Shown here: positions 16,085 through 45,717 of the stretch, one piece after another
Layout of the letters: every line of letters begins with the position of its first letter
Position numbering within the stretch: position 1 is the first letter of the stretch
Assembly (NCBI GenBank): GCA_023379265.1
Contig: JAMCUI010000009.1
Coordinates: 252,908-316,907, forward strand
Direction: 5' to 3'
Length of the DNA stretch: 64,000 nucleotides
Origin: Patescibacteria group bacterium
GTDB taxonomy: Bacteria > Patescibacteriota > Microgenomatia > 2-02-FULL-39-11
Notes under the pieces: model-generated
The model's database searches: none
What the model was told of the DNA's origin: nothing
What the model saw: the letters and a program-made list of their open reading frames with translations, nothing else
Position numbers and translations under genes: made by a program

Positions 16085-16086
16085 AC

Positions 16087-21822: not shown

Positions 21823-22593
21823 ATGACAAAAAATACCAAAGAAAAGAAAGTTGTAGTTGTTATGCCGGCATACAATGCCGAAAAGACAATAAAAAAAACC
21901 TACAATGATATCCCCCAAGACGCAGTAGACGAAGTGATAGTTGTAGATGATGATAGCGCTGACAGTACTGTGAAAATTGCCAAAAAGTTGAAACTTGCCG
22001 TATTTGTTCACGATAAAAATTTGGGATACGGAGGGAATCAGAAGACGTGTTATAGGGAGGCTTTGAGGAAAAATGCCGATATAATAGTGATGATTCATCC
22101 TGATTATCAGTATGATGCCACTTTGACTAAATATCTTGTACAACCAATCATTGACGGAAAGTTTGATATCATGTTAGGAAGCAGGATAAGAAGCAGAAAA
22201 GAGGCTCTTTCAGGAGGCATGCCTTTGTATAAATACATAAGCAACAGGGTTCTTACACTTTTTGAGAATATCATTCTTGATCTGAATCTTTCCGAATACC
22301 ATACAGGTTTTCGTGCTTTTAGCAGTAATGTTCTGAAGAGGTTGCCTTTAGATAAATTTTCAGATGACTTTGTTTTTGACCAGGAAATTCTAGTTAGTGC
22401 CCATGCTGCTGGTTTTACCATTGGAGAAATTGCAGTACCCGTGCGCTATTTTCCTGAAGCATCTTCAATAAATTTTATCCGTTCTACTAGATATGGAATA
22501 ATGATATTGTATACGCTGGTGAAGTATTTACTTAAAGATTACGGCATGGATTTTCCAATATTCCATTTTAAGGGAAAAAGTGAAAAAAACTGA
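21823..22593 (+). CDS. Polyprenyl-phosphate glycosyltransferase, GT2 Dpm1/GtrB/CsbB-like
   Basis: 'VVVVMPAYNAEKTI', 'VIVVDDDSADST' and 'GSRIRSRKEALSGGMPLYKYISNRVLTLFEN...YHTGFRAF' (the ArnC/GtrB-type R-x-R...S/T region). Immediately followed by a YfhO-like membrane protein. Confidence 0.65.
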   Translation: MTKNTKEKKVVVVMPAYNAEKTIKKTYNDIPQDAVDEVIVVDDDSADSTVKIAKKLKLAVFVHDKNLGYGGNQKTCYREALRKNADIIVMIHPDYQYDATLTKYLVQPIIDGKFDIMLGSRIRSRKEALSGGMPLYKYISNRVLTLFENIILDLNLSEYHTGFRAFSSNVLKRLPLDKFSDDFVFDQEILVSAHAAGFTIGEIAVPVRYFPEASSINFIRSTRYGIMILYTLVKYLLKDYGMDFPIFHFKGKSEKN

Positions 22594-24232
22594 CTTTATA
22601 GTTATTGCCTTAATTATCCTTTTTTCTGTACTTACCCTAAAGGATCTTTTTATTCCGGGATTTTATACAAGTCATGATGGCATTCACCAGATAGTCAGAC
22701 TGTATTATTTTGATAAACTCATGCATGATGGACAGTTTCCACCGCGTTATGTCGGAAACCTGTTGTACGGTTTTGGTTATCCTCTTTTCAGTTTTTCTTA
22801 CCAAATGCCGTGGTTTTTCGGGGAGCCTCTTCATTTTGCTGGATTGTCGGTAATTGATAGTGTAAAGATGACTTTTCTAGTCACTTATGTTCTTTCAGGA
22901 ATTGCTATGTTTATCTTCCAAAAAAAAGTATTTGGTACTTTACCAGCTATTGTAGGTACTGTTGTATACCAATATGCTCCCTACAGATTTTCCAATATTT
23001 TTGTCAGGGCGGCAATCGGGGATGCGACGTCGTTTATTTTTCCTCCACTTTTTTTCTTGGCCATTTATATGATTAAAAAAGGCAAAAAAATTAGTGGAAA
23101 ATGGATTTCACTCTCGGCATTATCCATTGCCGGCCTATTACTTTCCCATGCAATGGTATTTTTCTTATTTATTATTTGTATAGGTATCTATTTTATTTTG
23201 TCATATCTTTTTGTCCCAAATAAAAAACTATTCCTTGTATCTTTTATTTCCATCGGATTTCTAGCATCGGGTCTATCCGCTTATTATTTTTTTCCCTCTC
23301 TAATTGAAAGAAACTATACTGTATTTGCTTCTATATTTGGTCCTGAATTTGTCGGAAATACATTTTTGTCTATTAAAGACTTGATCTACTCTCCTTGGGG
23401 GTACGGTATGATGAACGCGAAAGAAGGAGCAATGTCTCTTCAGGTGGGAATTGGTCAATGGTTATCTGTTATTGCAGGTTTTATAGGATTGATTTGGCTT
23501 TCTTTGCGTCGCAATCTAAGTAATAAAGAAAAACTACTTAGAGGGGAAGCGTTTATTTTTCTTGTCATTTTTATTTTTTCTGTCTTTCTAATGCTTCCTT
23601 TATCGCTATTTTTATGGAAACTTATAAGCCGCTTCGCCATAGTTGATTTTACGTGGAGAGTATTGCCTGTGACAGTGTTAGCAGCATCATATCTGGCCGG
23701 ATTTTTATCATCTGTTGTTCACGGCAGAGAGTTTTTTGCGTTTTTATTAGTACTTATCACGTTATACGCGGTGAGAAATGATACTAGAATAAACCAGGTG
23801 CAGAACTGGTCGATGCCGTTTTACCTTAGTCTAGAATCGACTACTAATCAGAATGATGAATATACACCGCAGTGGGTTAGATCAGATCTGTTGAAACCCG
23901 GCTTACCCAAAGTAGAATTTTCCGGAAATAATGCCGTGATAGATATAAAAGACATGAAATCAAATTATATAAGTTTGGCGGAAAATGCTTCACAATCAGG
24001 CATTTTGCAGATAAACAGAGTTTATTATCCCGGGTGGGTGGCTTATGTCAACGGCCGGCAAGCTCAAATAAATTACAAAGATAACGGTTTTATGAAATTG
24101 CGCGTTGCCGCAGGAAGAAATCTTGTTGAGGCAAAGTTTATGGAGACGCCGCTTAGAAAGATAAGTGATATTCTATCGATCATCTCGCTTTTGGTCGCAT
24201 CATATCTCATAATTAGATACAGGAAAACATGA
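22580..24232 (+). CDS. Polytopic membrane protein, YfhO/GT-C-like (candidate lipid-linked sugar transferase partner of the upstream GT2)
   Basis: 550 aa. First-loop 'FYTSHDGIHQIVRLYYFDKLMHDGQFPPRYV...GFGYPLFSFSYQMPW'. Its C-terminal soluble domain 'VYYPGWVAYVNGRQAQI' shares a motif with the C-terminus of ORF 3497-5809. Confidence 0.45.
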   Translation: MKKTDFIVIALIILFSVLTLKDLFIPGFYTSHDGIHQIVRLYYFDKLMHDGQFPPRYVGNLLYGFGYPLFSFSYQMPWFFGEPLHFAGLSVIDSVKMTFLVTYVLSGIAMFIFQKKVFGTLPAIVGTVVYQYAPYRFSNIFVRAAIGDATSFIFPPLFFLAIYMIKKGKKISGKWISLSALSIAGLLLSHAMVFFLFIICIGIYFILSYLFVPNKKLFLVSFISIGFLASGLSAYYFFPSLIERNYTVFASIFGPEFVGNTFLSIKDLIYSPWGYGMMNAKEGAMSLQVGIGQWLSVIAGFIGLIWLSLRRNLSNKEKLLRGEAFIFLVIFIFSVFLMLPLSLFLWKLISRFAIVDFTWRVLPVTVLAASYLAGFLSSVVHGREFFAFLLVLITLYAVRNDTRINQVQNWSMPFYLSLESTTNQNDEYTPQWVRSDLLKPGLPKVEFSGNNAVIDIKDMKSNYISLAENASQSGILQINRVYYPGWVAYVNGRQAQINYKDNGFMKLRVAAGRNLVEAKFMETPLRKISDILSIISLLVASYLIIRYRKT

Positions 24233-25032
24233 ACAAAATATCCGTCGCCATAGCTACATATAATGAAGGGAAAAACATCAGCAAATGCTTGGAAAGTGTG
24301 AAAAGTTGGGTGGATGAGATTGTGATTGTGGATGGTACATCAACAGATGACACTGTTAAAATAGCCAAAGAGTTTGGCGCGAGTGTAATTTCTGCAGATA
24401 ATCCTGACATGTTTCATATAAACAAGCAGAAAGCCATAGACGCATGTAAATCTGGAAATTGGATACTCCAACTTGATGCAGACGAAGTAGTGTCAACCGA
24501 TTTGAAAAAAGAAATTATAGTTGCTATTAATAACCAACAACCAATAACTCATAGCTTACAATCAATCAATGGTTTCTGGCTTCCACGCAAGAATTTTTTC
24601 TTGGGAAGATTTTTTGAAAAAGGAGGACAGTATCCTGACTATACTTTGAGGTTATACCGTAAGGGAAAGGGCAAGTTGCCCTGTAAAAGCGTCCATGAAC
24701 AGGCGGTTGTAGAAGGAGAGACTGCATATCTTAAAAACCCTCTTTTGCACTACCCATATCCAAATTTCGCGCATTATTTAGAACATTTCAATAAATATAC
24801 CGATATATTTGCCGACGAGTTGATAGACAAGAAAATTTCAATTTCTTTTTCTTCTATAGTTTCTTTTATGTTTATAAAACCATTTTTATGGTTTCTTTTG
24901 ACTTTTGTAAGGCATAAAGGCTTCGTAGACGGTTTTCCCGGATTTGTTTTTTCCTTCTTTTCTGCTTTGCGATATCCTGTTTCCTATATTAAATATTGGG
25001 AAAAGAAGAAACTAGGAAATATTTCCAAGTAA
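24229..25032 (+). CDS. Family 2 glycosyltransferase with C-terminal membrane segment
   Basis: 'ISVAIATYNEGKNI', 'IVIVDGTSTDDT', 'QLDADE' and 'YPDYTLRLYRKGKG'. Paralog of ORFs 2-769 and 1671-2444. Hydrophobic C-terminus. Confidence 0.7.
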   Translation: MNKISVAIATYNEGKNISKCLESVKSWVDEIVIVDGTSTDDTVKIAKEFGASVISADNPDMFHINKQKAIDACKSGNWILQLDADEVVSTDLKKEIIVAINNQQPITHSLQSINGFWLPRKNFFLGRFFEKGGQYPDYTLRLYRKGKGKLPCKSVHEQAVVEGETAYLKNPLLHYPYPNFAHYLEHFNKYTDIFADELIDKKISISFSSIVSFMFIKPFLWFLLTFVRHKGFVDGFPGFVFSFFSALRYPVSYIKYWEKKKLGNISK

Positions 25033-25033
25033 A

Positions 25034-26095
25034 ATGATAAAAGGAAGAAAACTCAAAGTTGCAATTGTTGTTCCTCCGATTGCAGGCCACAAGATGCGCG
25101 GAACCGGCAATTACACTCAAAATCTATATACGGCTTTGAATAAGATTCAAGATGTTGAAGTAAGTTTAAAGACGATCGATGAAATTAGATATTGCACTGC
25201 CGATGTTATCCATTTTCCTTATTTTGACCCTTTTTTTTTGACTCTTCCCTTCATAAAGTCAAAGCCTACAGTAGTCACGGTTCATGATCTTATCCCTCTT
25301 CGTTACCCGAGTCATTTTCCATCCGGTTTAAAGGGTTTTCTAAAATGGAATCTGCAGAAAATTTCTCTTTGGAGCGTCGACGCAGTCATTACTGACTCTG
25401 TTTCATCACAGAATGATATTGAAGGATTTGCCGATATTAAAAAGGAGAAAATACATGTGATCTATCTGGGGGTAACACCGGAATTTAGCAAAGCATACTC
25501 CAAAGATTATAAAGAAAAAGTAATAAAAAGTTTGTCGCTTCCCCAAAAGTTCGTACTAAATGTGGGGGATATCAATTACAATAAAAACATCCCTGGGTTA
25601 TTGAAGGCTTTTTCAGTTTTAGTTTCAAGGAATTCTGGATTGAAATTAATCTTAGTAGGTGAAGGATTTACGCGGCCATCGACAGAATTGGTTCAGATGA
25701 CGGAGTTGATGAGAGAGATGGAAATAGAAGATAAGGTATTGAGAGTTAGTTCATTGGATGTACTCGAATTGGCAGTTGTATATCAACTAGCACAAGTGTA
25801 TGTGCAGCCATCATTTGCTGAGGGATTTGGTCTTCCCGTTCTTGAGGCTTTTGCTGCCGGGTGTCCAGTGGTAGTTGCAAACACCACCAGTCTCCCCGAG
25901 GTGGTAGGTAGTGCCGCCGTTATGTTTAACCCACAGAATACGGATACGCTTGTAAAGTCAATTTCCCTCCTCTTAAAAGACAAGGGTAAAAGAGATTACT
26001 TTATATCCCAGGGAAAGAAGAGAGCAAAATTATTTACTTGGGAAAAATGTGCCAGAGAGACAGCGGAAATTTACAGAAAATTTATCCATAATTAA
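25034..26095 (+). CDS. GT4-family glycosyltransferase
   Basis: 'SFAEGFGLPVLEAFAAGCPVVVANTTSLPEVVG' (glycos_transf_1 signature). Confidence 0.75.
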   Translation: MIKGRKLKVAIVVPPIAGHKMRGTGNYTQNLYTALNKIQDVEVSLKTIDEIRYCTADVIHFPYFDPFFLTLPFIKSKPTVVTVHDLIPLRYPSHFPSGLKGFLKWNLQKISLWSVDAVITDSVSSQNDIEGFADIKKEKIHVIYLGVTPEFSKAYSKDYKEKVIKSLSLPQKFVLNVGDINYNKNIPGLLKAFSVLVSRNSGLKLILVGEGFTRPSTELVQMTELMREMEIEDKVLRVSSLDVLELAVVYQLAQVYVQPSFAEGFGLPVLEAFAAGCPVVVANTTSLPEVVGSAAVMFNPQNTDTLVKSISLLLKDKGKRDYFISQGKKRAKLFTWEKCARETAEIYRKFIHN

Positions 26096-26202
26096 ATAGG
26101 AGCTACGCATTCCAATATCATGCTGAATTTGTTTGTGATTCCGAGACTAGTTCGGGATGACAATCTAAACTACGATTTATTGCGTAACTCCTGATTAAAA
26201 TA

Positions 26203-27399
26203 ATGTTTATTTTTATTACTTTTTTAATCTGGAGAGTAGGTTTATTTTCATTGGCCGCTTTAGGTTCAAATTTATTGCCTTTCGCGCCCCGTTTTCCTTA
26301 TGCGGATATGCTTCTTATTCCCTCAGGTCTTCCGTCATGGTTTTGGTCGTTTGCCAATTTTGATGGAGTACATTATCTGACTATTGCCAAAGAAGGTTAT
26401 AGTGCCCAATATACTCAAGTGTTTTTTCCATTTTTTCCTCTAGTATTGAGATTTTTTCAAAATTTGATCTTTTTTGCTAGTCCTGTTTTTGTTGGAATAA
26501 CTTTATCAAGCCTTATATTTCTGGCGTCTTTATATGTTTTGGGAAAGTTAATGTCGCTTGATTATAAAAAAAGTGAAGTGAAATGGATAATTCTTTTTTT
26601 TGTTTTTTTTCCAACATCATTTTTTTTTGGTAGCCTTTATACCGAAGGTATTTTTCTTTTATTTATGCTCAGTGCATTTTATGAGGCTAGAAGAAAACAT
26701 TTCAGACTGGCGGCAGTTTTGGGTACTCTTGCTTCAGCGACGAGACTTGTTGGCATATTTCTCATTCTTGCCTTATGGTGGGAAGAAATTATTGCAAAGA
26801 GGGAGAAGATGGGCCCAAAAGGTTCAAAAACAATTAAATTAGAGACAAAGTACACGGGATATTTTGAAGTTATAATCAATTATTTGAATTATATCGTTCA
26901 CTCTCCAATAACATATATTCTTCCCATAGGACTTCTGGCCTATATGATTTTTCTACAGTGGCAATATGGGGATTTTCTATATTTCTGGCATGCACAGCCG
27001 GTTTTTGGCGCCCAGAGAAGCGGAGCAGGCATAATACTTTTGCCACAGGTAGTTTGGAGATATTTCAAGATTTTTTCAAATTTAAGTCCGCTTAAAGAAC
27101 CTTTTATTATTGCGTTTACTGAATTTGTAGCAACGATATTATCAATAGTTCTCTTAATTATTGCTTATTTGAAGAAAGTTCGGCTTTCATATCTTATCTT
27201 TTCTTGTTTGACGATATTGGTACCAACGCTTACCGGAACCTTTTCTAGTATGCCTCGATATATATTGGTAGCGTTCCCCCTTTTTATAGTTCTTGGGCTT
27301 ATTAAGAACAAATGGTTGAAGATAGTATTGTTGACGATTTTTATCGTACTTCTTTCTTTTTACACAATACTTTTTACAAGAGGTCACTGGGTAAGCTGA
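26203..27399 (+). CDS. GT-C fold mannosyltransferase-like membrane protein, PIG-V/Gpi18 (GT76)-like
   Basis: 'FANFDGVHYLTIAKEGYSAQYTQVFFPFFPL' matches the PIG-V 'WD--HFL-IAEHGY--EH--AFFPGFPL' signature. 398 aa, polytopic. Confidence 0.55.
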   Translation: MFIFITFLIWRVGLFSLAALGSNLLPFAPRFPYADMLLIPSGLPSWFWSFANFDGVHYLTIAKEGYSAQYTQVFFPFFPLVLRFFQNLIFFASPVFVGITLSSLIFLASLYVLGKLMSLDYKKSEVKWIILFFVFFPTSFFFGSLYTEGIFLLFMLSAFYEARRKHFRLAAVLGTLASATRLVGIFLILALWWEEIIAKREKMGPKGSKTIKLETKYTGYFEVIINYLNYIVHSPITYILPIGLLAYMIFLQWQYGDFLYFWHAQPVFGAQRSGAGIILLPQVVWRYFKIFSNLSPLKEPFIIAFTEFVATILSIVLLIIAYLKKVRLSYLIFSCLTILVPTLTGTFSSMPRYILVAFPLFIVLGLIKNKWLKIVLLTIFIVLLSFYTILFTRGHWVS

Positions 27400-27434
27400 T
27401 TGAATACATCTTAATTCTCCTATAAAATTAAGCA

Positions 27435-28115
27435 ATGAGACTTTTGATAGGGATACCTGCCTATAATGAAGAAAAAATGATTGGGGTTGTTATTTCATCT
27501 TTGCCTAAAAGACTTACGGGAGTTGATAAGGTTGATATAGTGGTGGTTGACGATGGGTCTGAAGATAGAACTGGAGAAATTGCCCAATCTAAAAGGGTTA
27601 CAGTTCTGCGTCATATCATAAACAGAGGATTGGGTGGAGCGTTAAAAACTATATTTGCATTTGCATTAGAGAGAAATTATGATATTTTAGTGACTTTTGA
27701 CGCTGATGGACAACATGAGTCAAAATATATATCTGATGTTATTAAACCTATTCTTTCACAAAAATCAGATGTGGTTATAGGTACCAGATGGAAAAGTAAG
27801 GCACATGTACCCTTTTCCCGAAGATTGATAAACCAATTAGCAAACGTAATAACTTTTATTCTTTACCATGTTTGGACTTCTGATTCTCAATCGGGATTTC
27901 GGGCATTTAATAAAAACTCAATAAACAAAATTAAATTGCAGACTGACGGAATGGAAGTTTCTAGTGAATTTTTTAAGGAGATAAAAAGTAATAATCTGAG
28001 ATTTTCTGAAATATCCATAATTCCTGTTTATTCTGATTATTCATTAGAGAAAGGCCAAAGATTGAGTAATGCTCCTTCAGTAATGATAAATTTACTTTTG
28101 AGGCTATTAAGATAG
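27435..28115 (+). CDS. Polyprenyl-phosphate glycosyltransferase, GT2 Dpm1/GtrB-like (soluble form)
   Basis: 'LLIGIPAYNEEKMI', 'VVVDDGSEDRT', 'FDADGQHE' and 'GTRWKSKAHVPFSRRLINQLANVI...SGFRAF'. Confidence 0.65.
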   Translation: MRLLIGIPAYNEEKMIGVVISSLPKRLTGVDKVDIVVVDDGSEDRTGEIAQSKRVTVLRHIINRGLGGALKTIFAFALERNYDILVTFDADGQHESKYISDVIKPILSQKSDVVIGTRWKSKAHVPFSRRLINQLANVITFILYHVWTSDSQSGFRAFNKNSINKIKLQTDGMEVSSEFFKEIKSNNLRFSEISIIPVYSDYSLEKGQRLSNAPSVMINLLLRLLR

Positions 28116-28119
28116 ATCT

Positions 28120-28485
28120 ATGCATTTAGTATTTACACAAGTTGTCTTAAGTATTTTTATTGTATTTGCTCTATCGCGTGTTTTTTTGCGGTTCAAAAGC
28201 GGAGAAGTGACATTTTTGGGATTCCTATTTTGGATTTTGCTTTTCGGATCTGCTTTGGCAATTATCATTTATCCGCCCATTTCTGGGGGTATCGCCAGAA
28301 TATTGGGTATAGGCCGTGGAGTAGATCTTGTTATTTATACTTCAATCGTACTTCTTTTTTATCTTGTTTTTAGACTTTATGTCTATCTTCAAGATATGCG
28401 TCATGAACTGACGAAATTGGTACAGAAGCTGGCTATGAAGGAGTTGGATGAAAAAAATGAAAAAAAACCCTCTTCCCAAAATTAG
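28120..28485 (+). CDS. Small 4-TM membrane protein, DUF2304-like (commonly paired with Dpm1-like GT2)
   Basis: 121 aa. 'GIGRGVDLVIYTSIVLLFYLVFRLYVYLQD' followed by a charged C-terminal tail. Directly downstream of the GT2. Confidence 0.4.
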   Translation: MHLVFTQVVLSIFIVFALSRVFLRFKSGEVTFLGFLFWILLFGSALAIIIYPPISGGIARILGIGRGVDLVIYTSIVLLFYLVFRLYVYLQDMRHELTKLVQKLAMKELDEKNEKKPSSQN

Positions 28486-29233
28486 TGTAATTACCCCCTC
28501 ATTCAATCAGGGTAACTTTATTGCAGAAACTATAGACTCGGTTCTTTCCCAGGGATATAAGAATTTGGAGTATTGGATAATTGATGGAGGTTCAACAGAT
28601 GATACAATTTCGGTACTAAAAAGATACGGTAAGAAAATCCAATGGATGTCCAAAAAAGATAAAGGTCAAACAGATGCGATAAATAAAGGGATGGAAAAAG
28701 TGAGTGGGGATATAGTTACTTATCTTAACTCAGATGATATTTTATTACCGGGAAGTATAGAAAAAATTGCTGACTTTTTTTCTGTAAATCCGGATATATT
28801 CTGGATTACTGGGAAATGCAAGATAATAGATGAAAAAGGTAATGAAATAAGGAAACTGGTTACATTATACAAAAACTTCTGGCTGAAATATTCCAGAAAT
28901 CCAATATTTCTCTCTATTTTGAATTTCATTTCCCAGCCTGCGACTTTCTGGAGAGCAGAAGTAATAAAATCAGTCGGTTTATTTGACGCCAGTCTTTATT
29001 ACACTATGGACTATGATTATTGGTTAAGAATGAGTAGAATATATAAACTGGGTTTTATCGATGATTATCTAGCATCATTCAGGTTTCATGATAAATCAAA
29101 AAGCTCAAAAAATGTTAAGAAATTGATTGAAGAAGGTTATAAGGTGGTCAAAGGACATGATAAGGGAATGTTGCCGACAATACACAGGTTACACGATATT
29201 TTCACTCTAACCGCTTACTCTATTATTAAATAA
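28448..29233 (+). CDS. Family 2 glycosyltransferase
   Basis: 'ISVITPSFNQGNFIAETIDSVLSQ', 'YWIIDGGSTDDT' and 'YLNSDD'. The start could instead be 28457; it overlaps the upstream ORF. Confidence 0.75.
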   Translation: MKKMKKNPLPKISVITPSFNQGNFIAETIDSVLSQGYKNLEYWIIDGGSTDDTISVLKRYGKKIQWMSKKDKGQTDAINKGMEKVSGDIVTYLNSDDILLPGSIEKIADFFSVNPDIFWITGKCKIIDEKGNEIRKLVTLYKNFWLKYSRNPIFLSILNFISQPATFWRAEVIKSVGLFDASLYYTMDYDYWLRMSRIYKLGFIDDYLASFRFHDKSKSSKNVKKLIEEGYKVVKGHDKGMLPTIHRLHDIFTLTAYSIIK

Positions 29234-30187
<954 letters not shown>

Positions 30188-30199
30188 AATTTTGTATTT

Positions 30200-31222
30200 A
30201 TGGTTAGCAAGAGATTCTGGAAAAAGAAAAAAGTACTCGTAACAGGTGCTTCATTTATAGGGTCACATCTTATAGATAGACTGGTGGATATGGGAACGAA
30301 GGTAAGAGTAGTAAATATAAGTAAAAAACATCTACCCTTTTTTTCTAAACTAGTGAGAAGTGGCAGCGTTGAATTCATATCTAGAGATCTTCGTAATTTA
30401 GAAAATGCGCAAAAAAGTGTAAGAGGAATTGATATTGTTTTTCACCTTGCCTGTAATTACGGAGGTAGAGGATACATAGATTTACATCAGGGTTCTACCT
30501 CATCTAATTTGCTTCTTGATGGATCTGTATTTTTGGCTTCACTAAATGAAAGAGTGGAGAAAGTGGTTTTTGCCTCTTCAGGTTGTGTTTATCCAAATTT
30601 TTTACAGACTGATCCGAATAAAACAATATATCTCAAGGAAGAAATGGTGAAACCTCCATATGATGTAGATAATATGTACGGATGGGCAAAACTTATGGGT
30701 GAGATGACTTTGCGTGCATATTATAGAGATTTCGGATTAAAGTCCGTTTCATGCAGGTATTTTTCCGTCTATGGAGAAAGAGAGGCAGAGAACCATGCGG
30801 TGATCGCCATGATTGCCAAAGCCTTCATTAGACAAAATCCTTATGAAATCTGGGGTACGGGAGAACAGATAAGAAATTGGACTTATGTAGCCGATACTGT
30901 GGAAGGTACGCTTTTAGCTGCAGAAAAGATAAATGACGCAACATCGGTAAATCTTGGAACTACTGAGAGAACAAAAGTAATTGATGCGGCTCGGGAGATT
31001 TTACGTTGTACGGGATCTAATGCTAAAATAAAAGTTTTACCATCCATGCCTACAGGACCTTACAATAGGGTAGCCGATAACCGGCTGGCAAAAAAGCTTT
31101 TAGGTTGGGAGCCTCAGGTGAAGTTTATGGATGGGTTACATAGGACAATAGAATGGTATTTTGCCAACAAAAATGAAAATCAGATCAGAAATTGCTTAAA
31201 AAAGATTCTTTTAGGGAGCTAA
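30200..31222 (+). CDS. NAD-dependent epimerase/dehydratase family protein, diverged paralog of fcl
   Basis: The N-terminus '[21 protein letters not shown]' parallels fcl '[22 protein letters not shown]' but lacks one Gly of the Rossmann motif. 'YGWAKL' supplies YxxxK. 340 aa. Confidence 0.6.
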   Translation: MVSKRFWKKKKVLVTGASFIGSHLIDRLVDMGTKVRVVNISKKHLPFFSKLVRSGSVEFISRDLRNLENAQKSVRGIDIVFHLACNYGGRGYIDLHQGSTSSNLLLDGSVFLASLNERVEKVVFASSGCVYPNFLQTDPNKTIYLKEEMVKPPYDVDNMYGWAKLMGEMTLRAYYRDFGLKSVSCRYFSVYGEREAENHAVIAMIAKAFIRQNPYEIWGTGEQIRNWTYVADTVEGTLLAAEKINDATSVNLGTTERTKVIDAAREILRCTGSNAKIKVLPSMPTGPYNRVADNRLAKKLLGWEPQVKFMDGLHRTIEWYFANKNENQIRNCLKKILLGS

Positions 31223-31231
31223 CTTTCCCCT

Positions 31232-31259
31232 TTTACACGACCACCGGTTTTTATATACT
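31232..31259 (+). promoter_or_regulatory. Candidate sigma70-like promoter
   Basis: TTTACA (31232-31237), a 16-nt spacer, then TATACT (31254-31259), in the gap between the stop at 31222 and the ATG at 31279. Confidence 0.35.
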
Positions 31260-31278
31260 TACGTTATTCCATTTGCAT

Positions 31279-32934
31279 ATGTTACGAATGTTTTCCTCAA
31301 CAATAAAAAAACATACTCCACTTTTTTTTATAATTTTTGCTTATATACTTCTTATTTACCGATATTCCGGTTTCGTGCCACTTTGGGATTCTTTCGAGTA
31401 TGTCAATACTCATATGTACAAAGCCGTGATTTCACAATTTAGCCTGCTGAATTTTAACTTTGCCGAGCATGTTTCTTTTGCCTGGACACTACTTACCAGC
31501 TGGCCTCAGTATTTAAGCTTTGGAAATATGACTCTTCTTCATTTTACTGTAGCCTTTTTTACTGTTCTTTCAATTATTTCATTTTACGGTATATTAAAAC
31601 ACCTTTTTTCCGGCAATAAGCATAATATTGAAGTAAATCTATTGACATTCCTATACGCTTTCTATCCTCCTTTTGTAGCAAATGCCCTGCAATATAGTCC
31701 TGATTACGGAGTTTTGGTTTTCTATACAATTTTTCTTTATTTTTTGATTACTAAACATAAAAAACTTACCATTTTGTCGGGTCTATGTCTCGTATTTACA
31801 AAAGAAACAGGTATTGTCTTATACATAATAAGCATATTTATACTCCATCTTTTTACTATATTTGAACAAAGACTGAATAGAAAAAATATACAAAATTTCA
31901 TATGGAATTTTTCAGCATACATATTGCCTTTTTTATTCTATGTTTTTTTTCAGTTTATTAAGGTTTTGAATTTTAGGCAAGAAGTTTTACCTTGGTATTT
32001 AGATCCAATGTCAGGAAAATTGCAAATGCCGTTATTTCCGGCAAGTGTTGTCCAAAAAATCCCCTTTTCTTATTTTTTGGGGATTTTTGTAATAAATTTT
32101 AATTGGATCTTATCTACGTTCCTCATAATAGGATTGGTACTCAGTTTATTCCATTTTTTCTCTCAAAATAGCATGAAATCCGGAAAAACTTGGGGCATAA
32201 ATAAGTCAATTTCCTATTTATATATAGTTTTTCTTAGTGCAACGGCTATTTTCAGCCTTTATAAAATCTTTACCAATCTGAGATATTTTTTGCCGCTTTA
32301 TGTTTTTATGATTATATTATTTTATTTTGGTTTGAAATCTGTTTTTCGAAAAAGGCGTATTGTAATTTTCATATTATCGATTATAGTTATAGTTTTTTTT
32401 ATATCCTGTTTTAGGACTGTAGATCCGGTTTCAAGGAAAATTTACGGTACTTTCAAATTCGGAAATCACGACATTCTGGATATGACGTCGATTACAGGAG
32501 AATGTTGCGGATATGGACGTGATCAACTCGTATATAATCTTGAGTATACTCATTTACACTACCTTTTAAATGATTTGCTCCATAATATTCGTCCTCCCAA
32601 CGAAGATGCTTTTGCCTATAATCTTCATGCAGGACCATTTCTATTTCCAGTTTGGGATAAAAGCAATTTTTCCAGAACTGTAAGCCATAAGAATGTACAC
32701 CCGGTATATATAATCAACTGGTATAGTTATCTTTATAATAAGCCTAAAATAATCTATTATATTGAAATGCCCAATACTGACAATACAAATTATCTCCAGT
32801 GGTATGAGACCAGAATGTATAGCCCGACTTTGAAATTACATTATGCTTTAGTGAAAGAAATGAGTTTTGATGATGACGGATACGCCCTTAAAGTATATAA
32901 GTTGAAATATAAAAGTGAGACACCTACCAGATAG
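31279..32934 (+). CDS. Polytopic membrane protein of unknown family (possible GT-C-like transferase or polymerase)
   Basis: At least 12 hydrophobic segments and a soluble C-terminal ~150 aa. 'VPLWDSFEYVNTHMY' acidic/aromatic first loop. Start chosen at the first ATG after the upstream stop; the track ORF begins at 31192. Confidence 0.35.
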   Translation: MLRMFSSTIKKHTPLFFIIFAYILLIYRYSGFVPLWDSFEYVNTHMYKAVISQFSLLNFNFAEHVSFAWTLLTSWPQYLSFGNMTLLHFTVAFFTVLSIISFYGILKHLFSGNKHNIEVNLLTFLYAFYPPFVANALQYSPDYGVLVFYTIFLYFLITKHKKLTILSGLCLVFTKETGIVLYIISIFILHLFTIFEQRLNRKNIQNFIWNFSAYILPFLFYVFFQFIKVLNFRQEVLPWYLDPMSGKLQMPLFPASVVQKIPFSYFLGIFVINFNWILSTFLIIGLVLSLFHFFSQNSMKSGKTWGINKSISYLYIVFLSATAIFSLYKIFTNLRYFLPLYVFMIILFYFGLKSVFRKRRIVIFILSIIVIVFFISCFRTVDPVSRKIYGTFKFGNHDILDMTSITGECCGYGRDQLVYNLEYTHLHYLLNDLLHNIRPPNEDAFAYNLHAGPFLFPVWDKSNFSRTVSHKNVHPVYIINWYSYLYNKPKIIYYIEMPNTDNTNYLQWYETRMYSPTLKLHYALVKEMSFDDDGYALKVYKLKYKSETPTR

Positions 32935-32955
32935 TTATATCCGGAGGAGGAGATA

Positions 32956-34236
32956 TCAGAATCTTTTAAGAAATCTTTCTATCATCCTTTTGGTATATTC
33001 GATCATATCAGAGTTTATTCCTGGAAAAACTCCCAACCAGAAAGCTCGCGCCATCACTTCGTCGGCATTTACTATTTTTCCTGCAGTTTTATATTTTATT
33101 TTCAGGTACGCCGGATGCCGCAGAAGGTTTCCTGAAAAGACATTTCTGGTACCTATTCTTTCTTTTTCCAGATATTCAGTAAGCTGATTTCTGGTAAACG
33201 GTGCTTCCTTTCTGACAAGAAGTGGAAATCCAAACCAGCAAGGATCTTCTTTATCTGTTGGAGTAAGAAGTTCGAAGAATTTGATATATTTACTGAAGAA
33301 TTTATATAACTTTTTATAATTCTCTTTCCTTATTTTTATAAAATACGGCAGTTTTGAGAGTTGAGCCAAGCCAATGGCGGCTTGGAAATCCGTAAGTTTC
33401 AGATTGAAACCTATTTGTGAATAGATATATTTATGGTCGTAGCCTGCCGGCAACTCTCCCATCTTCCAGCCAAACCTCTTGCCGCATGTATCATCTTTTC
33501 CCGTATCACACCAGCAGTCCCTGCCCCAGTCGCGAAATTGCCTGATTGAGCGGTGGATAAGGGGGTTATTGGTAACTACCGCTCCTCCTTCACCCATTGT
33601 AATCTGATGAGCAGGATAAAAGGAGAATGTGGATATATCGCCATATGTTCCCACCATTTTCCCGTCATAACGGCTTCCCAAGGCATCGCAGCAGTCCTCA
33701 ATCAACCATAGATGGTATTTTTTGGCTAGTGCCACTATTTTATCCAGATTATAGGGATTACCAAGGGTGTGAGCGACCATTATCAGTTTTGTCTTTTTGG
33801 TTATCGCTTTTTCGATTTTGTCCGTGTCGATGTTAAGAGAAGAAAGTTCGGCGTCCACAAAGACAGGCGTCATGCCAAAGATGATGCCGGGGTTGACGGT
33901 CGTGGGGAAGGCGACAGCGCCGGTAATGAACTCATCACCTTTTTGTAAACGCCTTTCACCAAAAACTTTTGATGTAAGGGAAAAAAAGGCAGCCAGATTG
34001 GCAGAAGAGCCTGAGTTTACCAATGAAACATAACGTACTCCAAGGAAACGCGCGAATTCCCTTTCAAACTCTTTGGCAAATCGTCCTTCTGTCCACCAAC
34101 CATCTTTTGCTGCTGAGACGGCATTTTCTATTTCGTTTTCGTCAAATACTTTTCCAGAAGCTGGAATATAAGTCTTTCCCGGTATAAATGTTGTATCGTA
34201 AGGCATAGAGTATATTAACTTTGTATTATAATACAT
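32956..34236 (-). CDS. ddhC: CDP-6-deoxy-D-xylo-4-hexulose 3-dehydrase (E1; PMP-dependent Fe-S enzyme, DegT/DnrJ/EryC1 superfamily)
   Basis: Collinear with Salmonella RfbH: 'PASGKVF', 'GSSANL', 'AFPTTVNP', 'LIMVAHTLGN' (His in place of the PLP lysine), 'LIEDCCDALG', 'FYPAHQITMGEGGAV' and 'RDWGRDCWCDTGKDDTCGKRFG' (Fe-S cysteine cluster). Confidence 0.85.
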   Translation of the reverse strand: MYYNTKLIYSMPYDTTFIPGKTYIPASGKVFDENEIENAVSAAKDGWWTEGRFAKEFEREFARFLGVRYVSLVNSGSSANLAAFFSLTSKVFGERRLQKGDEFITGAVAFPTTVNPGIIFGMTPVFVDAELSSLNIDTDKIEKAITKKTKLIMVAHTLGNPYNLDKIVALAKKYHLWLIEDCCDALGSRYDGKMVGTYGDISTFSFYPAHQITMGEGGAVVTNNPLIHRSIRQFRDWGRDCWCDTGKDDTCGKRFGWKMGELPAGYDHKYIYSQIGFNLKLTDFQAAIGLAQLSKLPYFIKIRKENYKKLYKFFSKYIKFFELLTPTDKEDPCWFGFPLLVRKEAPFTRNQLTEYLEKERIGTRNVFSGNLLRHPAYLKIKYKTAGKIVNADEVMARAFWLGVFPGINSDMIEYTKRMIERFLKRF

Positions 34237-34265
34237 GGCAATTACTTATAGAAATTAATTTCCAG

Positions 34266-34973
34266 ATGGGAACTGCTTCACTATCAATAATTTTGCCGGT
34301 ATTCAATGAAAAAGAAGTTATAGAATATGTCCTTTCGGAATGGAAAACGCTTCTCGAAAAAAACAAAATCCCTTTCAATTTCGTCATTTGTGAGGATGGC
34401 TCAACTGATGGAACAAAAGAATTATTAAAAAGACTAAAATTGAATTATCCTATTATCCTCAATCAGAAAAGGAAAAGGAGAGGTTACGGTAATGCAGTAC
34501 TTGATGGTATAAAGTCTGCATTGTCAGAGTTTTTACTTTGTGTCGATTCTGACGGTCAATGTGATCCAGAAGATTTTCTTAAGTTTTGGAAGGAGAGAAT
34601 GTCGGCAGACATACTGATTGGGAGGAGACGGGAAAGGTCCGATCCTCTACAAAGAAAAGTATTTTCTAATTTATTTAGAATAGTCCATAAAACACTTTTT
34701 ACAACGTCTATACATGATCCATCTACTCCCTTTGTCTTATTTAGAAAGAAGGTAGTTACTCCCTATATAAATTATTTGACTTACTTAAACGAAGGATTTT
34801 GGTGGGGTTTTATAGCTATGGCTGTTAAGGCTAAATTATCCGTAAATGAAATACCGATTAACCATCGTAAAACACTATGTAGTGTCAAGACAAAGGTCTA
34901 TACACTAGATAAAATTCCGTCTATTGCTTTCAGAAATCTGTTAGGACTTTTTCGTTTATACTTTACAAAATAA
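34266..34973 (+). CDS. Polyprenyl-phosphate glycosyltransferase, GT2 Dpm1/GtrB-like
   Basis: 'SLSIILPVFNEKEVI', 'FVICEDGSTDGT', 'VDSDGQCDPED' and 'GRRRERSDPLQRKVFSNLFRIV...DPSTPFVLFRKKVV' (ArnC/GtrB-type). The track ORF starts at a TTG at 34221; the ATG at 34266 is preferred. Confidence 0.6.
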   Translation: MGTASLSIILPVFNEKEVIEYVLSEWKTLLEKNKIPFNFVICEDGSTDGTKELLKRLKLNYPIILNQKRKRRGYGNAVLDGIKSALSEFLLCVDSDGQCDPEDFLKFWKERMSADILIGRRRERSDPLQRKVFSNLFRIVHKTLFTTSIHDPSTPFVLFRKKVVTPYINYLTYLNEGFWWGFIAMAVKAKLSVNEIPINHRKTLCSVKTKVYTLDKIPSIAFRNLLGLFRLYFTK

Positions 34974-34986
34974 ACGCTTATTGATT

Positions 34987-36045
34987 TCAAAAAGTAATTA
35001 TTTTATTTTTTAAGCCAAGTTTTTTTATATCTTTTAGAATTTCCTTCTTAAAGCGGAATGAGGAGACGAGTATCGGTTCTTTGTAATTCTCTAGATTTTC
35101 TGGCGGGATTATATCAATTCCTTTTAATTTTTTTCCTTGAAGATTTGTATTCCTATCTGCTAATTTAATAGTTTTTTGGGCAAGATTAGTGGTTGAAAGT
35201 AAGCGTTCGGTAAGAGATCCTGCACCCCAAACAATTATTCTTTCAGGAGCGGCATCAATAACCCGGTTTATCCTATCCATTTTTGATTGTGATAATTGGA
35301 TATACTTGACCATAGAATTTCTTACGCCTCCATCTTTTTGCCACACTGAATAGATAGCCTTCCCGTCTGAAGATACATACAACGGAAAAAATTCATACAT
35401 TAGAGAATGAAGTGAGGATTTGCCAAAAAAATTGATATGTTCCAGTGAAAATTCTCCAAAAGGTTCTTCGAAATTTCTGTAAAAATTATCTGCATCAGGT
35501 ACGCATATGAATATTTTCCCTCCATCATTTATAAGACTGCCCAGTATGTGTATGGCTAAAGTGACTTTATCCAGATGTTCAAGAACGGCCGAAAGAATAA
35601 GGAAGTCATATTTTTTAGTGCCTGATTTCAGGTTGAACAGATCATTTGTTTCTACAGTAATGCCGTATTTCTTTTTTGCCATTTCTTTGCAGCGGGGAGC
35701 GGGGTCGACTCCGGAAAGGTTTTTGAAACCGTCTGTTTTGAGGAGATAAAGGAGATGTCCGGTTGAGCAGCCTATGTCCATGATGCGGTCTGATTTGTTT
35801 ATAAATTGTTCAATTATTTTAACGCAGTCTTTATGCAACTGGAAGTCCCGCGTGTCTTCATATTTTGACATTTTTTCATAATATTTGGCATAGTAAGTCT
35901 GTCTTGGGGAATTATTTACAAAAACAAATCCGCACCTGTTACATAAGGCAATATTATGTATTAGACCACCAACAAATTTCTGCGTAAACAATACGGTATT
36001 ATTTCTGCTGGTACAGATAGGACATGGTCTAACAGTCTGTCTCAT
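34987..36045 (-). CDS. NDP-hexose C-methyltransferase family protein (TylC3/EvaC-like): Zn-ribbon + class I SAM MTase + C-methyltransferase C-terminal domain
   Basis: N-terminal 'CPIC...CNRCGF' four-Cys ribbon. 'IMDIGCSTGHLLYLL...LSGVDPAPRCKEMAKKKYGI' SAM fold. C-terminal 'IIVWGAGSLTERLL...ADRNTNLQGKKLKGIDIIPPENL' resembles the Methyltransf_14 domain. Confidence 0.6.
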   Translation of the reverse strand: MRQTVRPCPICTSRNNTVLFTQKFVGGLIHNIALCNRCGFVFVNNSPRQTYYAKYYEKMSKYEDTRDFQLHKDCVKIIEQFINKSDRIMDIGCSTGHLLYLLKTDGFKNLSGVDPAPRCKEMAKKKYGITVETNDLFNLKSGTKKYDFLILSAVLEHLDKVTLAIHILGSLINDGGKIFICVPDADNFYRNFEEPFGEFSLEHINFFGKSSLHSLMYEFFPLYVSSDGKAIYSVWQKDGGVRNSMVKYIQLSQSKMDRINRVIDAAPERIIVWGAGSLTERLLSTTNLAQKTIKLADRNTNLQGKKLKGIDIIPPENLENYKEPILVSSFRFKKEILKDIKKLGLKNKIITF

Positions 36046-36977
36046 TTATTCTTGTTTCCAATAATTTTATCGATGATATAAGTCGGCCTGGCTTTGGTTT
36101 CTTCCACTATTACCTGTATATATTTGCCTATTATACTGATGGCCAAAAGCTGTATTCCTCCAAAAAAGACGATTGAAACTAATATGGTGACAGCACCCTT
36201 TATTGGGTTGCCGTAAATAATACTTATGAGGATATATAAGATAATAAAAAGAAATGACAAGATTACCAATATGAATCCGAAATAAGCCATCAGATCCAAT
36301 AGTAGGTATGAAAATCCAAATACACCCCTTTCAGCATGCTTAAAGTAATCGAGTATGTTATAAGAACTTTTACCTTTTTTTCTTTTGGGCCGGTCGTACA
36401 AGACATAAGCCGTATCAAATCCTACCCATGCCCTGAGTCCTCTGAAAAATCTGTATTTTTCTGGTAATGATTTGATAGCCTGCTGCACCTTTTTATCCAT
36501 AAGTCCATATCCGCTGGCGTTTACCGGAATTTCGATATTTGATATGAGCTTAAAAATTTTGTAGAAAAGCTTTCTGAAAAATATGGTGATAAAATAGTCA
36601 TCAATCTTTTTATACACTCCAACAACAACCTGGTAACCTTTTTCCCATCTTTTAATAAATTCCTTGATGAGATCCGGAGGGTCTTGAAGGTCTGCAGCAA
36701 AGCCGATTATTGCCTCACCTGTAGCCTGATCATATCCCGCCTGAGCAGAAGCTTCCGCGCCGAAATTTCGTGAAAGGAATATTCCTGTAACCCTTCTATC
36801 TTTTCTGACTATTTTGGAGATTATGTCCCTGGAGTTGTCGCTGCTGCCATTATCCACAAAAACAAATTCATAAGAATATTTGGGAATCTGCTTTGTTACT
36901 CTCAATAGGGTTTTATAAGCATTTTCCAAATTTAATTCTTCGTTGAAGCAGGGGATGACAAAAGAAATTTTCTTCAT
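36042..36977 (-). CDS. Membrane-anchored polyprenyl-phosphate glycosyltransferase (GtrB/ArnC-like GT2 with two C-terminal TM helices)
   Basis: 'ISFVIPCFNEELNL', 'FVFVDNGSSDNS', 'FAADLQDPPDLI' and two C-terminal hydrophobic helices ('FILVILSFLFIILYILISII' and 'VTILVSIVFFGGIQLLAISIIG'). Confidence 0.7.
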   Translation of the reverse strand: MKKISFVIPCFNEELNLENAYKTLLRVTKQIPKYSYEFVFVDNGSSDNSRDIISKIVRKDRRVTGIFLSRNFGAEASAQAGYDQATGEAIIGFAADLQDPPDLIKEFIKRWEKGYQVVVGVYKKIDDYFITIFFRKLFYKIFKLISNIEIPVNASGYGLMDKKVQQAIKSLPEKYRFFRGLRAWVGFDTAYVLYDRPKRKKGKSSYNILDYFKHAERGVFGFSYLLLDLMAYFGFILVILSFLFIILYILISIIYGNPIKGAVTILVSIVFFGGIQLLAISIIGKYIQVIVEETKARPTYIIDKIIGNKNK

Positions 36978-36990: not shown

Positions 36991-37809
36991 TTATTTTATG
37001 AGATTTCGGATTCTTTTTACTGCCGTCTTAAAACCAGCAAAACCGTCCGTATATCCAAGCCAGATTTCAGGGACGATCATTCCTTTATATTTTTTTAATT
37101 TCTCAAAGATTGGTTTGAAATTTATTTCCCCATCGCCAATTTGCACACCCTCGCCATCCTCACCTGTTGCATCTGCGATGTGAAGATGAGCCATATTCTG
37201 GATAAAAATCTCAAATTGAGCCATAAAATCCTTTTTTGCATAATTACAATACAATTTGGAGTGAGAAATGTCGTAGCAGATTTTTCTTTTTGTAGTTTTG
37301 CAAAACTCACCGATTTCCTCACCATCCATAAATATATTCGAGTTCCATTGCCCACCGAAATACCAGGGAAGAGGAGGCAGATTTTCTACCAGAATTTCAG
37401 AATTTTCGGTTCGTAAGAGAGATAGACTCTTTATGAGCGTTTCCATCCTGTAAATGTTATTCTTGGGTATATCTTTTTCATATGACATGCCTCCGGGATG
37501 CAAGATAAAAATATTTCTTTCATTAGTGAAATAGCTGAAAAATTTTTCGCTTTTAGAAATTATATTTTGCAGAATATCAAGTGATTCATTTAGAGGTAAT
37601 ACCTGATTCTCCGGTTTAATGTTTGAGATGTCTATCAAGTGTCCGCTCCAAAATTCGGGGAGATGGATTATGGCAGGAATAGGATATTTTATTTTTGGGG
37701 AAAAAGGGTAATCTGCATCTTTGTCAGAGAATTGGAATTCCACAAATTCTGGATCAAGTTCCATGACTTGGTCAAAATCTGAAAATCTGGTTTTCAAACC
37801 TATTTTCAT
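36991..37809 (-). CDS. Xylose isomerase-like TIM-barrel protein (sugar phosphate isomerase/epimerase family)
   Basis: 'NMAHLHIADATGEDGEG' (metal-binding H-x-H-x-x-D type) and 'MIVPEIWLGY'. 272 aa. Confidence 0.5.
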   Translation of the reverse strand: MKIGLKTRFSDFDQVMELDPEFVEFQFSDKDADYPFSPKIKYPIPAIIHLPEFWSGHLIDISNIKPENQVLPLNESLDILQNIISKSEKFFSYFTNERNIFILHPGGMSYEKDIPKNNIYRMETLIKSLSLLRTENSEILVENLPPLPWYFGGQWNSNIFMDGEEIGEFCKTTKRKICYDISHSKLYCNYAKKDFMAQFEIFIQNMAHLHIADATGEDGEGVQIGDGEINFKPIFEKLKKYKGMIVPEIWLGYTDGFAGFKTAVKRIRNLIK

Positions 37810-37815
37810 ATCTAA

Positions 37816-38862: not shown

Positions 38863-38940
38863 AAAAAGTTATTATACATTTTATTTTTTCTTATGACCAG
38901 CTGGCTAATTAAAAACCGATTGTACTGTTACTCTTACACT

Positions 38941-39828: not shown

Positions 39829-39831
39829 ATC

Positions 39832-43696: not shown

Positions 43697-43733
43697 AAAT
43701 ATTTGATTTACATTCTATTTAATTATAATCTAT

Positions 43734-45716: not shown

Positions 45717-45717
45717 C

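Follow-up and report, generated by a model that had tools for sequence, protein, structure and literature searches.

Four candidate polyprenyl-phosphate sugar synthases of the DPMS/GtrB superfamily in a GT-C-rich surface-glycan island of a Microgenomates-like genome

The 64-kb stretch of contig JAMCUI010000009.1 analyzed here (the window) encodes four glycosyltransferase family 2 (GT2) proteins, G1 to G4, that are candidate polyprenyl-phosphate sugar synthases, together with a large set of polytopic membrane glycosyltransferases of the GT-C type. Open reading frame (ORF) calling and Pfam/NCBIfam scans, which covered essentially every ORF of at least 100 amino acids (aa), showed the window to be a single continuous surface-glycan island with a GC content of ~0.37, containing 14 GT2 ORFs, several GT4 genes, one GT10 gene and many sugar-nucleotide tailoring enzymes. 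The island is at least 85 kb long and extends past both window ends. Named homologues came from Gottesman-, Levy-, Roizman-, Curtiss- and Daviesbacteria, all Microgenomates of the candidate phyla radiation (CPR). This region forms the core of the island, and its source is a Microgenomates-like CPR/Patescibacteria metagenome-assembled genome (MAG). By exact sequence match, the window was also placed on contig JAMDBJ010000020.1 of GCA_023487465.1, whose proteins bear the NCBI name 'Patescibacteria group bacterium'. This genome is likely ~1 Mb in size, judged from two related complete assemblies of ~1.0-1.2 Mb. The four GT2 ORFs named in the original prediction, which had been made from the DNA letters and a list of their ORFs, were all recovered:

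21823-22593, plus strand: G1, soluble GT2 of 256 aa, candidate polyprenyl-phosphate hexose synthase (DPMS/AglJ-like)
27435-28115, plus strand: G2, soluble GacI/PpgS-type GT2 of 226 aa, candidate polyprenyl-phosphate N-acetylhexosamine/hexose synthase
34266-34973, plus strand: G3, soluble DPM1-like GT2, candidate polyprenyl-phosphate sugar synthase
36042-36977, minus strand: G4, GtrB-like membrane-anchored GT2 of 311 aa with two C-terminal transmembrane (TM) helices, member of a variant clade

All four scored above the PF00535 cut-off (74-97 bits vs 23.3), and a Kyte-Doolittle scan agreed with the prediction that G4 alone has two C-terminal TM helices. The longest ORF of G3 opens at a TTG codon at 34221; the ATG start at 34266 is favored because homologues are ~232 aa long. 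Amongst PDB sequences, the best matches of the four were the dolichyl-phosphate mannose synthase PfDPMS, GtrB and ArnC. PfDPMS was the sole match of G1 (32 bits) and the best match of G2 (59 bits) and of G3 (55 bits, followed by GtrB with 40 and ArnC with 37). G4 aligned to Synechocystis GtrB (5EKP) with 241 bits from residue 3 to residue 307, spanning the GT-A domain, the juxtamembrane helices and both TM helices, and to the ArnC structure with ~100 bits. The best NCBIfam models across the four were PpgS, AglJ, PgfS and ArnC. They comprised PpgS (142 bits over the full length, equivalog cut-off 370) and AglJ (92 bits) for G2, AglJ (85 bits, cut-off 325) and PpgS (60 bits) for G1, PgfS (223 bits, cut-off 500) and ArnC (131 bits, cut-off 529) for G4, and weak matches of at most 50 bits to PgfS, PgaC (N-terminal part alone) and ArnC for G3. 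The AglJ and DPhHxTase cut-offs were not reached by G1, G2 or G3. Because every score lies under its equivalog cut-off, none of the four is classed as PpgS, AglJ, PgfS or ArnC and the sugar identities are not assignable. Homologues of G3 are named dolichol-phosphate mannosyltransferase by JGI.

The ten other GT2s of the window were used as internal controls and showed no resemblance to polyprenyl-phosphate (Pren-P) glycosyltransferases; SunS-, TuaG-, MftF-, EpsD- or PgaC-type NCBIfam models ranked first for them. Profile hidden Markov models (HMMs) were made for the G1, G3 and G4 families from their CPR orthologues and scored on a small panel that included these ten proteins, the ranking serving as a proxy for a phylogeny with many characterized references. 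The G1-family HMM scored G2 at 99.6 and PfDPMS at 46.5, with the other window GT2s at 28 or less, and gave GtrB, G3 and G4 merely 13-16, under three of the other window GT2s. With the G3-family HMM, PfDPMS reached 68.9 and GtrB 60.7, G1 scored 17.8 and the other window GT2s 30 or less, and with the G4-family HMM the values were 288.5 for GtrB, 66.6 for PfDPMS and 14 or less for the other window GT2s. The outcome of this comparison favors the claim that the four are polyprenyl-phosphate synthases, and no clustering with processive synthases or lipid-PP transferases, named in the original prediction as the contrary outcome, was seen, the best matches being PfDPMS, GtrB and ArnC. Assignment to either of those groups was rejected, as the PgaC, chondroitin-synthase, TuaG and PglI models covered the N-terminal nucleotide-binding half alone and scored below the Pren-P models. 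Recent paralogy of the four was also rejected, with detectable kinship between G1 and G2 alone (27-30% identity).

In PfDPMS, D91 and Q93 of the DADLQH motif bind the metal and D89 touches the sugar; dolichyl phosphate is held by three residues of interface helix 1 (R117, R131 and S135), and a catalytic base is not required (PMC5526996). Alignment to D89/D91/Q93/R117/R131/S135 gave these equivalents:

G1: H92, D94, Q96, R121, K137, N141 (S140 adjacent)
G2: D89, D91, Q93, R118, R129, N133
G3: D94, D96, Q98, R121, R130, S134
G4: A94, D96, Q98, Y122, R135, Y139

The metal/diphosphate Asp and Gln (DPMS D91 and Q93) are present in all four proteins, and the first Asp is replaced by His in G1, where H92-P93-D94-Y95-Q96 stands in place of DADLQ, and by Ala in G4. 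G2 retains D89-A-D91-G-Q93 together with R118 and R129, and G3 retains D-S-D-G-Q together with all three of the DPMS phosphate-binding residues. The G1 residues listed above are invariant in 36 family members, and helices 135-151 and 218-239 of the G1 model lie at the positions expected for interface helices. A scan by hydrophobic moment ranked the expected interface helices top in G1-G3, but control GT2s scored alike. The hallmark region that had been claimed for all four was found in G1 (LGSRIRSR...SN...TGFRAF), G2 (IGTRWKSK...RRLIN...SGFRAF) and G3 (IGRRRER...RKVFS...DPSTPF) and not in G4, which deviates (VGVYKK...SGYGLM). Altogether, these comparisons support the four GT2s as non-paralogous members of the DPMS/GtrB/ArnC/GacI superfamily and as candidate polyprenyl-phosphate glycosyltransferases; chance is not an issue, since the identifications rest on homology.

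The four GT2s lie in four gene modules, M1 to M4, of which M1, M3 and M4 were found again in other Microgenomates genomes. The module genes other than the GT2s are:

19408-20337, plus strand: GalE-like short-chain dehydrogenase/reductase (SDR) upstream of G1 (GalE model 200 bits, under cut-off)
20350-21816, plus strand: UDP-galactopyranose-mutase (UGM)-like flavoenzyme directly upstream of G1 (above the NF005548 cut-off, 462 bits vs 389)
22580-24232, plus strand: YfhO-like polytopic protein, probable GT-C (10 predicted TM segments; 14-nt overlap with the end of G1)
26203-27399, plus strand: PIG-V-like GT-C upstream of G2 (PF04188, 27.6 bits vs a cut-off of 22.4; 10 predicted TM segments)
28120-28485, plus strand: DUF2304 small membrane protein, GacJ/Rv3632-type partner of G2 (PF10066, 72 bits vs 25.5; 4 hydrophobic segments)
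30200-31222, plus strand: SDR epimerase/dehydratase, orthologue of the gene directly preceding G3 homologues in other CPR genomes
31288-32934, plus strand: GT-C-fold membrane glycosyltransferase without a Pfam match (AlphaFold2 pLDDT 89.7, pTM 0.92)
36991-46497, minus strand: CDP-hexose tailoring operon, co-transcribed with G4, which is its last gene (Pfam and NCBIfam matches)

In M1, the YfhO-like ORF was found directly after G1, as predicted, and the two overlapping genes are translationally coupled. The order flavoenzyme (69% identity), G1 (78%), YfhO-like gene (52%), GT2 (53%) and GT4 (49%) is kept in two long CPR contigs (L005 and L006); in both, a gene for an additional 564-aa protein with 12 TM segments stands between the last-named GT2 and the YfhO-like gene. 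The G1 homologue of a Gottesmanbacteria contig instead comes after two 8-9-TM proteins of ~500 aa. Identity to G1 is 70-78% among the top matches listed, which are mostly unnamed metagenome sequences, the named ones being CPR/Microgenomates. The best PDB match of the flavoenzyme is the T. cruzi UGM 4DSG (83 bits, full length), and the solved structures nearest to it are those of eukaryote-type UDP-galactopyranose mutases, NF005548 itself being annotated merely as 'hypothetical protein'. The retention of this flavoenzyme beside G1 homologues hints at a furanose donor.

Both neighbors predicted for G2 in M2 were confirmed by their Pfam matches, the PIG-V-like GT-C (with an FDG motif in its first loop) before it and the DUF2304 protein after it, the latter beginning 5 nt past the G2 stop. 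GacJ and Rv3632 are DUF2304 proteins that bind the soluble GT2s GacI and PpgS and raise their activity (bioRxiv 10.1101/180810). At the level of protein families and gene order, M2 reproduces the GacL/GacI/GacJ and PpgS/Rv3632 arrangement.

In M3, the SDR, the GT-C at 31288-32934 and G3 are parted solely by a divergently oriented DegT aminotransferase gene, and the GT-C lies 1.3 kb from G3. In Levy-, Roizman- and other CPR genomes, the gene just before the G3 homologue encodes an SDR, and 10-15-TM proteins of 530-850 aa are encoded nearby. In two of three loci, L009 and L011, this SDR abuts or overlaps the G3 homologue and shares 38-41% identity with the window SDR. The top 19 Foldseek matches of the 31288-32934 model in the PDB were all GT-C enzymes (ALG12, ArnT, Pmt4, STT3/PglB/AglB, EmbC, AftA), with TM-scores reaching ~0.5, and Asp34 in its first loop is invariant in 42 homologues. 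With its modeled GT-C fold and the acidic residue of extracytoplasmic loop 1, the protein is placed in the GT-C superfamily.

G4 in M4 departs from its closest characterized relative within the active site. In GtrB, Mg is bound by D96 and Q98, and the phosphate of undecaprenyl phosphate (Und-P) is guided by R122, R125, K132, K180 and R197; the proposed base is D94 or D157, the former being preferred for both GtrB and ArnC, and R122 has been called universally conserved (PMC12698845). G4 retains D96, Q98, D99, an Arg at position 180 and R197, and has A94, Y122 (K123 and K124 adjacent), a Thr where GtrB has K132, and G156 for D157. Amongst 31 CPR orthologues from across genera (54-87% identity), position 94 varies (A, C, G, S, E, P) and R122 occurs in about a third, and K/R at 125, R180 and R197 are kept. 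In the wider family, represented by 150 sequences at 50% identity, D94 is present in 126, R122 in 121 and D157 in 117. These patterns suggest that G4 belongs to a conserved minority clade with a variant active site and is presumably functional rather than decayed.

The operon that ends in G4 encodes a glucose-1-P cytidylyltransferase (257 bits), a CDP-glucose 4,6-dehydratase (212 bits), a GFO oxidoreductase, SDRs, an acetolactate-synthase-like thiamine diphosphate (TPP) enzyme, methyltransferases including FkbM, a NeuB-like protein and a TIM-barrel protein. From this gene content, the operon probably makes a CDP-activated, deoxy and branched or methylated hexose, and the TPP enzyme is reminiscent of YerE of yersiniose synthesis. 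The same CDP-sugar cassette surrounds G4 orthologues in ~15 Microgenomates loci, and about half of these loci have a gene for a 569-691 aa, 10-15-TM protein immediately after. The longest dehydratase ORF (44745-45866, minus strand) overlaps the cytidylyltransferase gene (45718-46497, minus strand) by ~150 nt; its true start is probably an internal Met, because the domain begins near residue 57. G4 orthologues with 55-87% identity also occur in several GTDB-representative MAG records titled 'uncultured Gammaproteobacteria bacterium' (L014, L015, L022, L023, L031, L032, L037, L038, L048). The two of these that were examined, L022 and L032, also have Microgenomates-type cassettes, and the Gammaproteobacteria titles are probably mislabeled.

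The remaining GT-Cs of the window are:

3497-5809, plus strand: YfhO-family GT-C (PF09586, 90 bits vs 28.5; 12 predicted TM segments)
6816-19316, plus strand: tandem PMT_2/ArnT-like array with seven full-length genes and one truncated gene (PMT_2/PMT above cut-off for seven)

Eleven GT-C transferases had been predicted, and eleven full-length ones were counted, plus one truncated: the YfhO protein at 3497-5809, the seven PMT_2 proteins, and the proteins at 22580-24232, 26203-27399 and 31288-32934. The eight PMT_2/ArnT-like genes stand head-to-tail, and the seven full-length ones are 27-40% identical pairwise and all have the loop-1 DE motif. They look like long-diverged active enzymes with differing acceptor or linkage specificities that would draw on a small donor pool. 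The ORF at 8516-9385 (289 aa, 8 TM) is PMT_2-like without catalytic loop 1, and is apparently a copy that was truncated or took on another role. A lenient Pfam scan of the proteins at 22580, 26203, 8516 and 31288 added nothing. GT-C genes adjoin G1 and G2, and G4 orthologues in other genomes often precede genes for large polytopic proteins.

The count of four synthases holds for the window and falls short for the island, where two more DPM1/GtrB-like GT2s were found upstream, so that four is a lower bound. They lie in the upstream flank on the same contig (L054 1-9235), at L054 1-669 (partial) and 2883-3647, and their best models were PgfS, AglJ, ArnC and a Dol-P hexose transferase. The same flank encodes two SDRs and a 458-aa, 10-TM PMT_2 GT-C. 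A gene of the MOP/Wzx family (L054 5910-7358; NF007773, 120 bits vs a cut-off of 273) lies there as well, 2-3 kb upstream of window position 1, and this nearby Wzx-type flippase candidate matches, by analogy, the GacK precedent. In a Candidatus Curtissbacteria MAG, a GtrA gene (PF04138, 88 bits) was found at L016 953-1363 on the minus strand, and because it lies inside the G4 cassette orthologous to that of the window, GtrA-type flippases accompany the G4 module in relatives. A possible route for a finished polymer lies within the window:

52619-54817, plus strand: Wzm/Wzt-type ABC-2 glycan exporter (PF01061, 74 bits; PF00005, 80 bits; weak Wzt_C match)

Homology, key residues and synteny support the interpretation of the four GT2s as polyprenyl-phosphate synthases. 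From these families, residues, folds and gene orders we infer the lipid-sugar products, the sugar identities, the flippase and the acceptor in the following scheme, which we regard with good confidence as the correct one in outline: G1-G4 would load single sugars onto a lipid carrier for use by outer-face GT-Cs, the whole forming a four-module glycan island. On the cytoplasmic face, each GT2 would take a single sugar from its nucleotide-sugar donor and place it on the phosphate of a C55-type lipid carrier, with the Asp and Gln of D-x-D-x-Q holding the metal and diphosphate and with Arg/Lys and Ser/Asn residues on the interface helix holding the lipid phosphate. The lipid-linked monosaccharide would then be flipped, possibly by the upstream Wzx-type MOP protein or by a GtrA encoded elsewhere, and used by GT-Cs on the outer face. 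Each module would run from sugar tailoring to lipid-sugar synthase to GT-C: the GalE-like SDR, UGM-like flavoenzyme, G1 and YfhO-like GT-C in M1; the PIG-V-like GT-C, G2 and its DUF2304 partner in M2; the SDR at 30200, the GT-C at 31288-32934 and G3 in M3; and the CDP-hexose/TPP-enzyme operon with GtrB-like G4 in M4. The seven PMT_2 proteins and the YfhO protein at 3497 probably share the same few donors and would differ in linkage or acceptor specificity. For the acceptor, a polymer made by the cytoplasmic GT2, GT4 and GT10 enzymes and exported by Wzm/Wzt would be the most economical choice, and the exporter may deliver it.

Several observations weigh against this scheme. Equivalog cut-offs were missed by all four GT2s, the Pfam YfhO match of the protein after G1 is under its cut-off and confined to the C-terminus (23.4 bits vs 28.5), and the ORFs scanned, which took in the flanks in part, yielded no priming phosphoglycosyltransferase, LCP ligase or acceptor. 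As the original prediction had it, the 64-kb window also holds no GtrA, by a scan of small multi-TM ORFs and by tblastn with genuine CPR GtrA; the DUF2304 gene is the sole credible small multi-TM ORF of the window, the other match being antisense within G1. In addition, neither TM segments nor membrane partners were identified for G1 and G3, and by fold G1 is almost as close to soluble GpgS/MpgS as to DPMS/ArnC. This raises the alternative that G1, G3 or both are ordinary soluble or peripheral GT2s, either GpgS/MpgS-like and acting on a small phospho-acid or extending an Und-PP-glycan in the cytoplasm, which would leave G2 and G4 alone to feed the GT-Cs. We consider this unlikely. The GpgS model covers the N-terminal half of G1 alone (41.6 bits vs a cut-off of 262), whereas the AglJ and PpgS alignments extend over almost all of the protein; on coverage and gene context, GpgS/MpgS identity was rejected for G1, though fold alone cannot separate the two. 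G3 moreover has all three DPMS lipid-phosphate residues and G1 has R, K and N/S at these positions, the family HMMs of both place DPMS over every other window GT2, and the coupling of G1 to a polytopic membrane protein is a conserved pairing. Finally, GacI, human DPM1 and the TM-less PfDPMS are all active without TM helices of their own. The departures of G4 also count against the scheme, as it and its CPR clade lack the proposed base D94 of GtrB and mostly lack R122 and D157, and with A94, Y122 and G156 in place of the favored base and of the Arg called universally conserved (PMC12698845), G4 could be a catalytically dead or repurposed GtrB homologue. This is, in our judgment, highly improbable, since the clade is 54-87% identical in many Microgenomates and keeps D96, Q98, D99, K/R125, R180 and R197, D94 is also missing in 24 of the 150 family representatives, and G4 ends a sugar-nucleotide operon. 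In PfDPMS, moreover, the lipid phosphate needs no base and D89A retains some activity (PMC5526996).

If the donors are made as proposed, their use outside the membrane may still differ from the decoration of a finished polymer. The GT-Cs could build or branch a glycan there, as Emb, Aft and Mpt enzymes do, or could O-glycosylate surface proteins such as pilins or an S-layer in the manner of PMT. There are eleven GT-Cs for four to six donors, the seven PMT_2 proteins are old duplicates (27-40%) that all keep the DE motif, which implies distinct acceptors or linkages, and the PMT_2 family spans both polymer-modifying and protein-mannosylating enzymes. On the other hand, many cytoplasmic GT2, GT4, GT10 and GT11 enzymes together with Wzm/Wzt make up the usual layout of a polymer that is pre-assembled and later decorated, and no protein acceptor was identifiable in the window. 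We hold this alternative to be the strongest of those considered, though still somewhat unlikely. Combinatorial decoration, as originally predicted, is one option for what the GT-Cs do with their donors, and extracytoplasmic polymer assembly or protein O-glycosylation fits equally well.

The context of G1 and G4 allows a more specific suggestion. M1 might make and use a polyprenyl-phosphate furanose, for example Und-P-galactofuranose, and the G4 clade might load a CDP-derived branched or dideoxy sugar, both as core CPR wall chemistry; we put this forward as a speculation that is rather doubtful at present. No precedent for a polyprenyl-phosphate-galactofuranose lipid donor was found in the literature searched, and the nearest analogue is the actinobacterial decaprenyl-phosphate-arabinofuranose. 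If the suggestion is true, the furanose donor of M1 would be a core and possibly essential step of CPR wall building, given the 70-78% identity of G1, and the loss of the first DxD Asp in G4 would mirror a missing sugar hydroxyl and argue against a universal catalytic-base role of this residue.

The mechanism proposed for the island is, at the level of homology, the already known three- or multi-component transmembrane glycosylation scheme (reviewed in PMC8035078), with G2 and its DUF2304 partner as the GacI/GacJ subtype and G4 as the GtrB subtype. The S. pyogenes GacI/GacJ/GacL (GacK) and M. tuberculosis PpgS/Rv3632 systems are alike in having a soluble GT2 that adjoins DUF2304 and GT-C genes and a cluster with an ABC-type polymer exporter, and the match of G2 to the PpgS model is full-length. 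They differ in that the GT-C beside G2 is PIG-V-like (PF04188) and not PMT_2, the PpgS score of G2 is far under its cut-off (142 vs 370), and the island's Wzx-type gene is ~30 kb away. G4 resembles Synechocystis/Shigella GtrB (with GtrA and a Gtr-type GT-C), E. coli/Salmonella ArnC-ArnT and S. mutans PgfS by its full-length match to GtrB and by D96/Q98/D99/R197. It differs by A94/Y122/G156 and by its CDP-hexose/TPP-enzyme operon, which replaces a UDP-glucose or 4-amino-4-deoxyarabinose context, and, unlike in the Gtr system, GtrA is missing from the window, though the Curtissbacteria cassette has one. PfDPMS, eukaryotic DPM1 and Haloferax AglJ are the kin of G1-G3, with PfDPMS as the best solved match, and the DxDxQ and lipid-phosphate sites and interface-helix equivalents are largely kept; G1-G3 are bacterial and without a TM domain, and G1 has HPDYQ for DADLQ.

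Amongst Firmicutes, several GT2/GT-C pairs per genome are also seen in B. subtilis (CsbB/YfhO, YkcC/YkcB, YkoT/YkoS), L. lactis (CsdAB/CD/EF with CflA) and Listeria (GtlA/B and GttA/B with GtcA), in systems that often share a flippase encoded at another site (PMC8035078). The GT-Cs of these systems are likewise of YfhO, PMT_2 or unassigned type. Unlike them, the present locus has four synthases (six island-wide) and 11-13 GT-Cs in one island, at ~2-3 GT-Cs per synthase. In mycobacteria and corynebacteria, a few lipid-linked monosaccharides (decaprenyl-phosphate-arabinofuranose, polyprenyl-phosphate-mannose) serve many GT-Cs of differing linkage specificity (Emb, Aft, Mpt, PimE), which polymerize arabinan and mannan; there, decaprenyl-phosphate-arabinofuranose comes from the UbiA/DprE route and not from a GT2. 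The homology seen between these sets and the GT-Cs of the island is that of the GT-C fold. Unusual features are the packing of four to six synthases with 11 or more GT-Cs into one island, the occurrence in a CPR host, the couplings to a UGM-like enzyme and to CDP-sugar synthesis, and the altered active site of the G4 clade. No description of CPR GT-C/DPM1-like arrays was found in the literature searched, which is weak evidence of novelty.

CPR/Patescibacteria are mostly uncultured and episymbiotic and have very small genomes. That such cells devote at least 85 kb to surface glycans, with four to six lipid-sugar synthases and more than 11 GT-Cs, suggests a heavy investment in extracytoplasmic glycosylation, which is probably central to the surface that they show to hosts and phages. 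The modular layout predicts which sugar each synthase would load, and the G4 clade offers a natural experiment on the catalytic-base question in GtrB and ArnC.

Additional genes of the island bear on the exported polymer and on the flanks. A 562-aa secreted or anchored protein of unassigned function is encoded in the upstream flank (L054). The downstream flank (L055 11813-21179) holds genes for methyltransferases, the fucosyltransferase-family enzymes GT11 and GT10 and further GT2s, as well as a 778-aa protein with 19 TM segments and a DUF2142 membrane protein. Within the window, a carbamoyltransferase (46678-48393) and an asparagine-synthase-like amidotransferase (49580-51532) are placed among the GT4 genes, and the pair suggests that sugars of the exported polymer are carbamoylated and/or amidated. 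A GDP-L-fucose-synthase-like SDR at 29237-30187 (291 bits, under cut-off) and a GT10 fucosyltransferase-family protein at 57662-58792 suggest that fucose or a related 6-deoxyhexose is present in the glycan.

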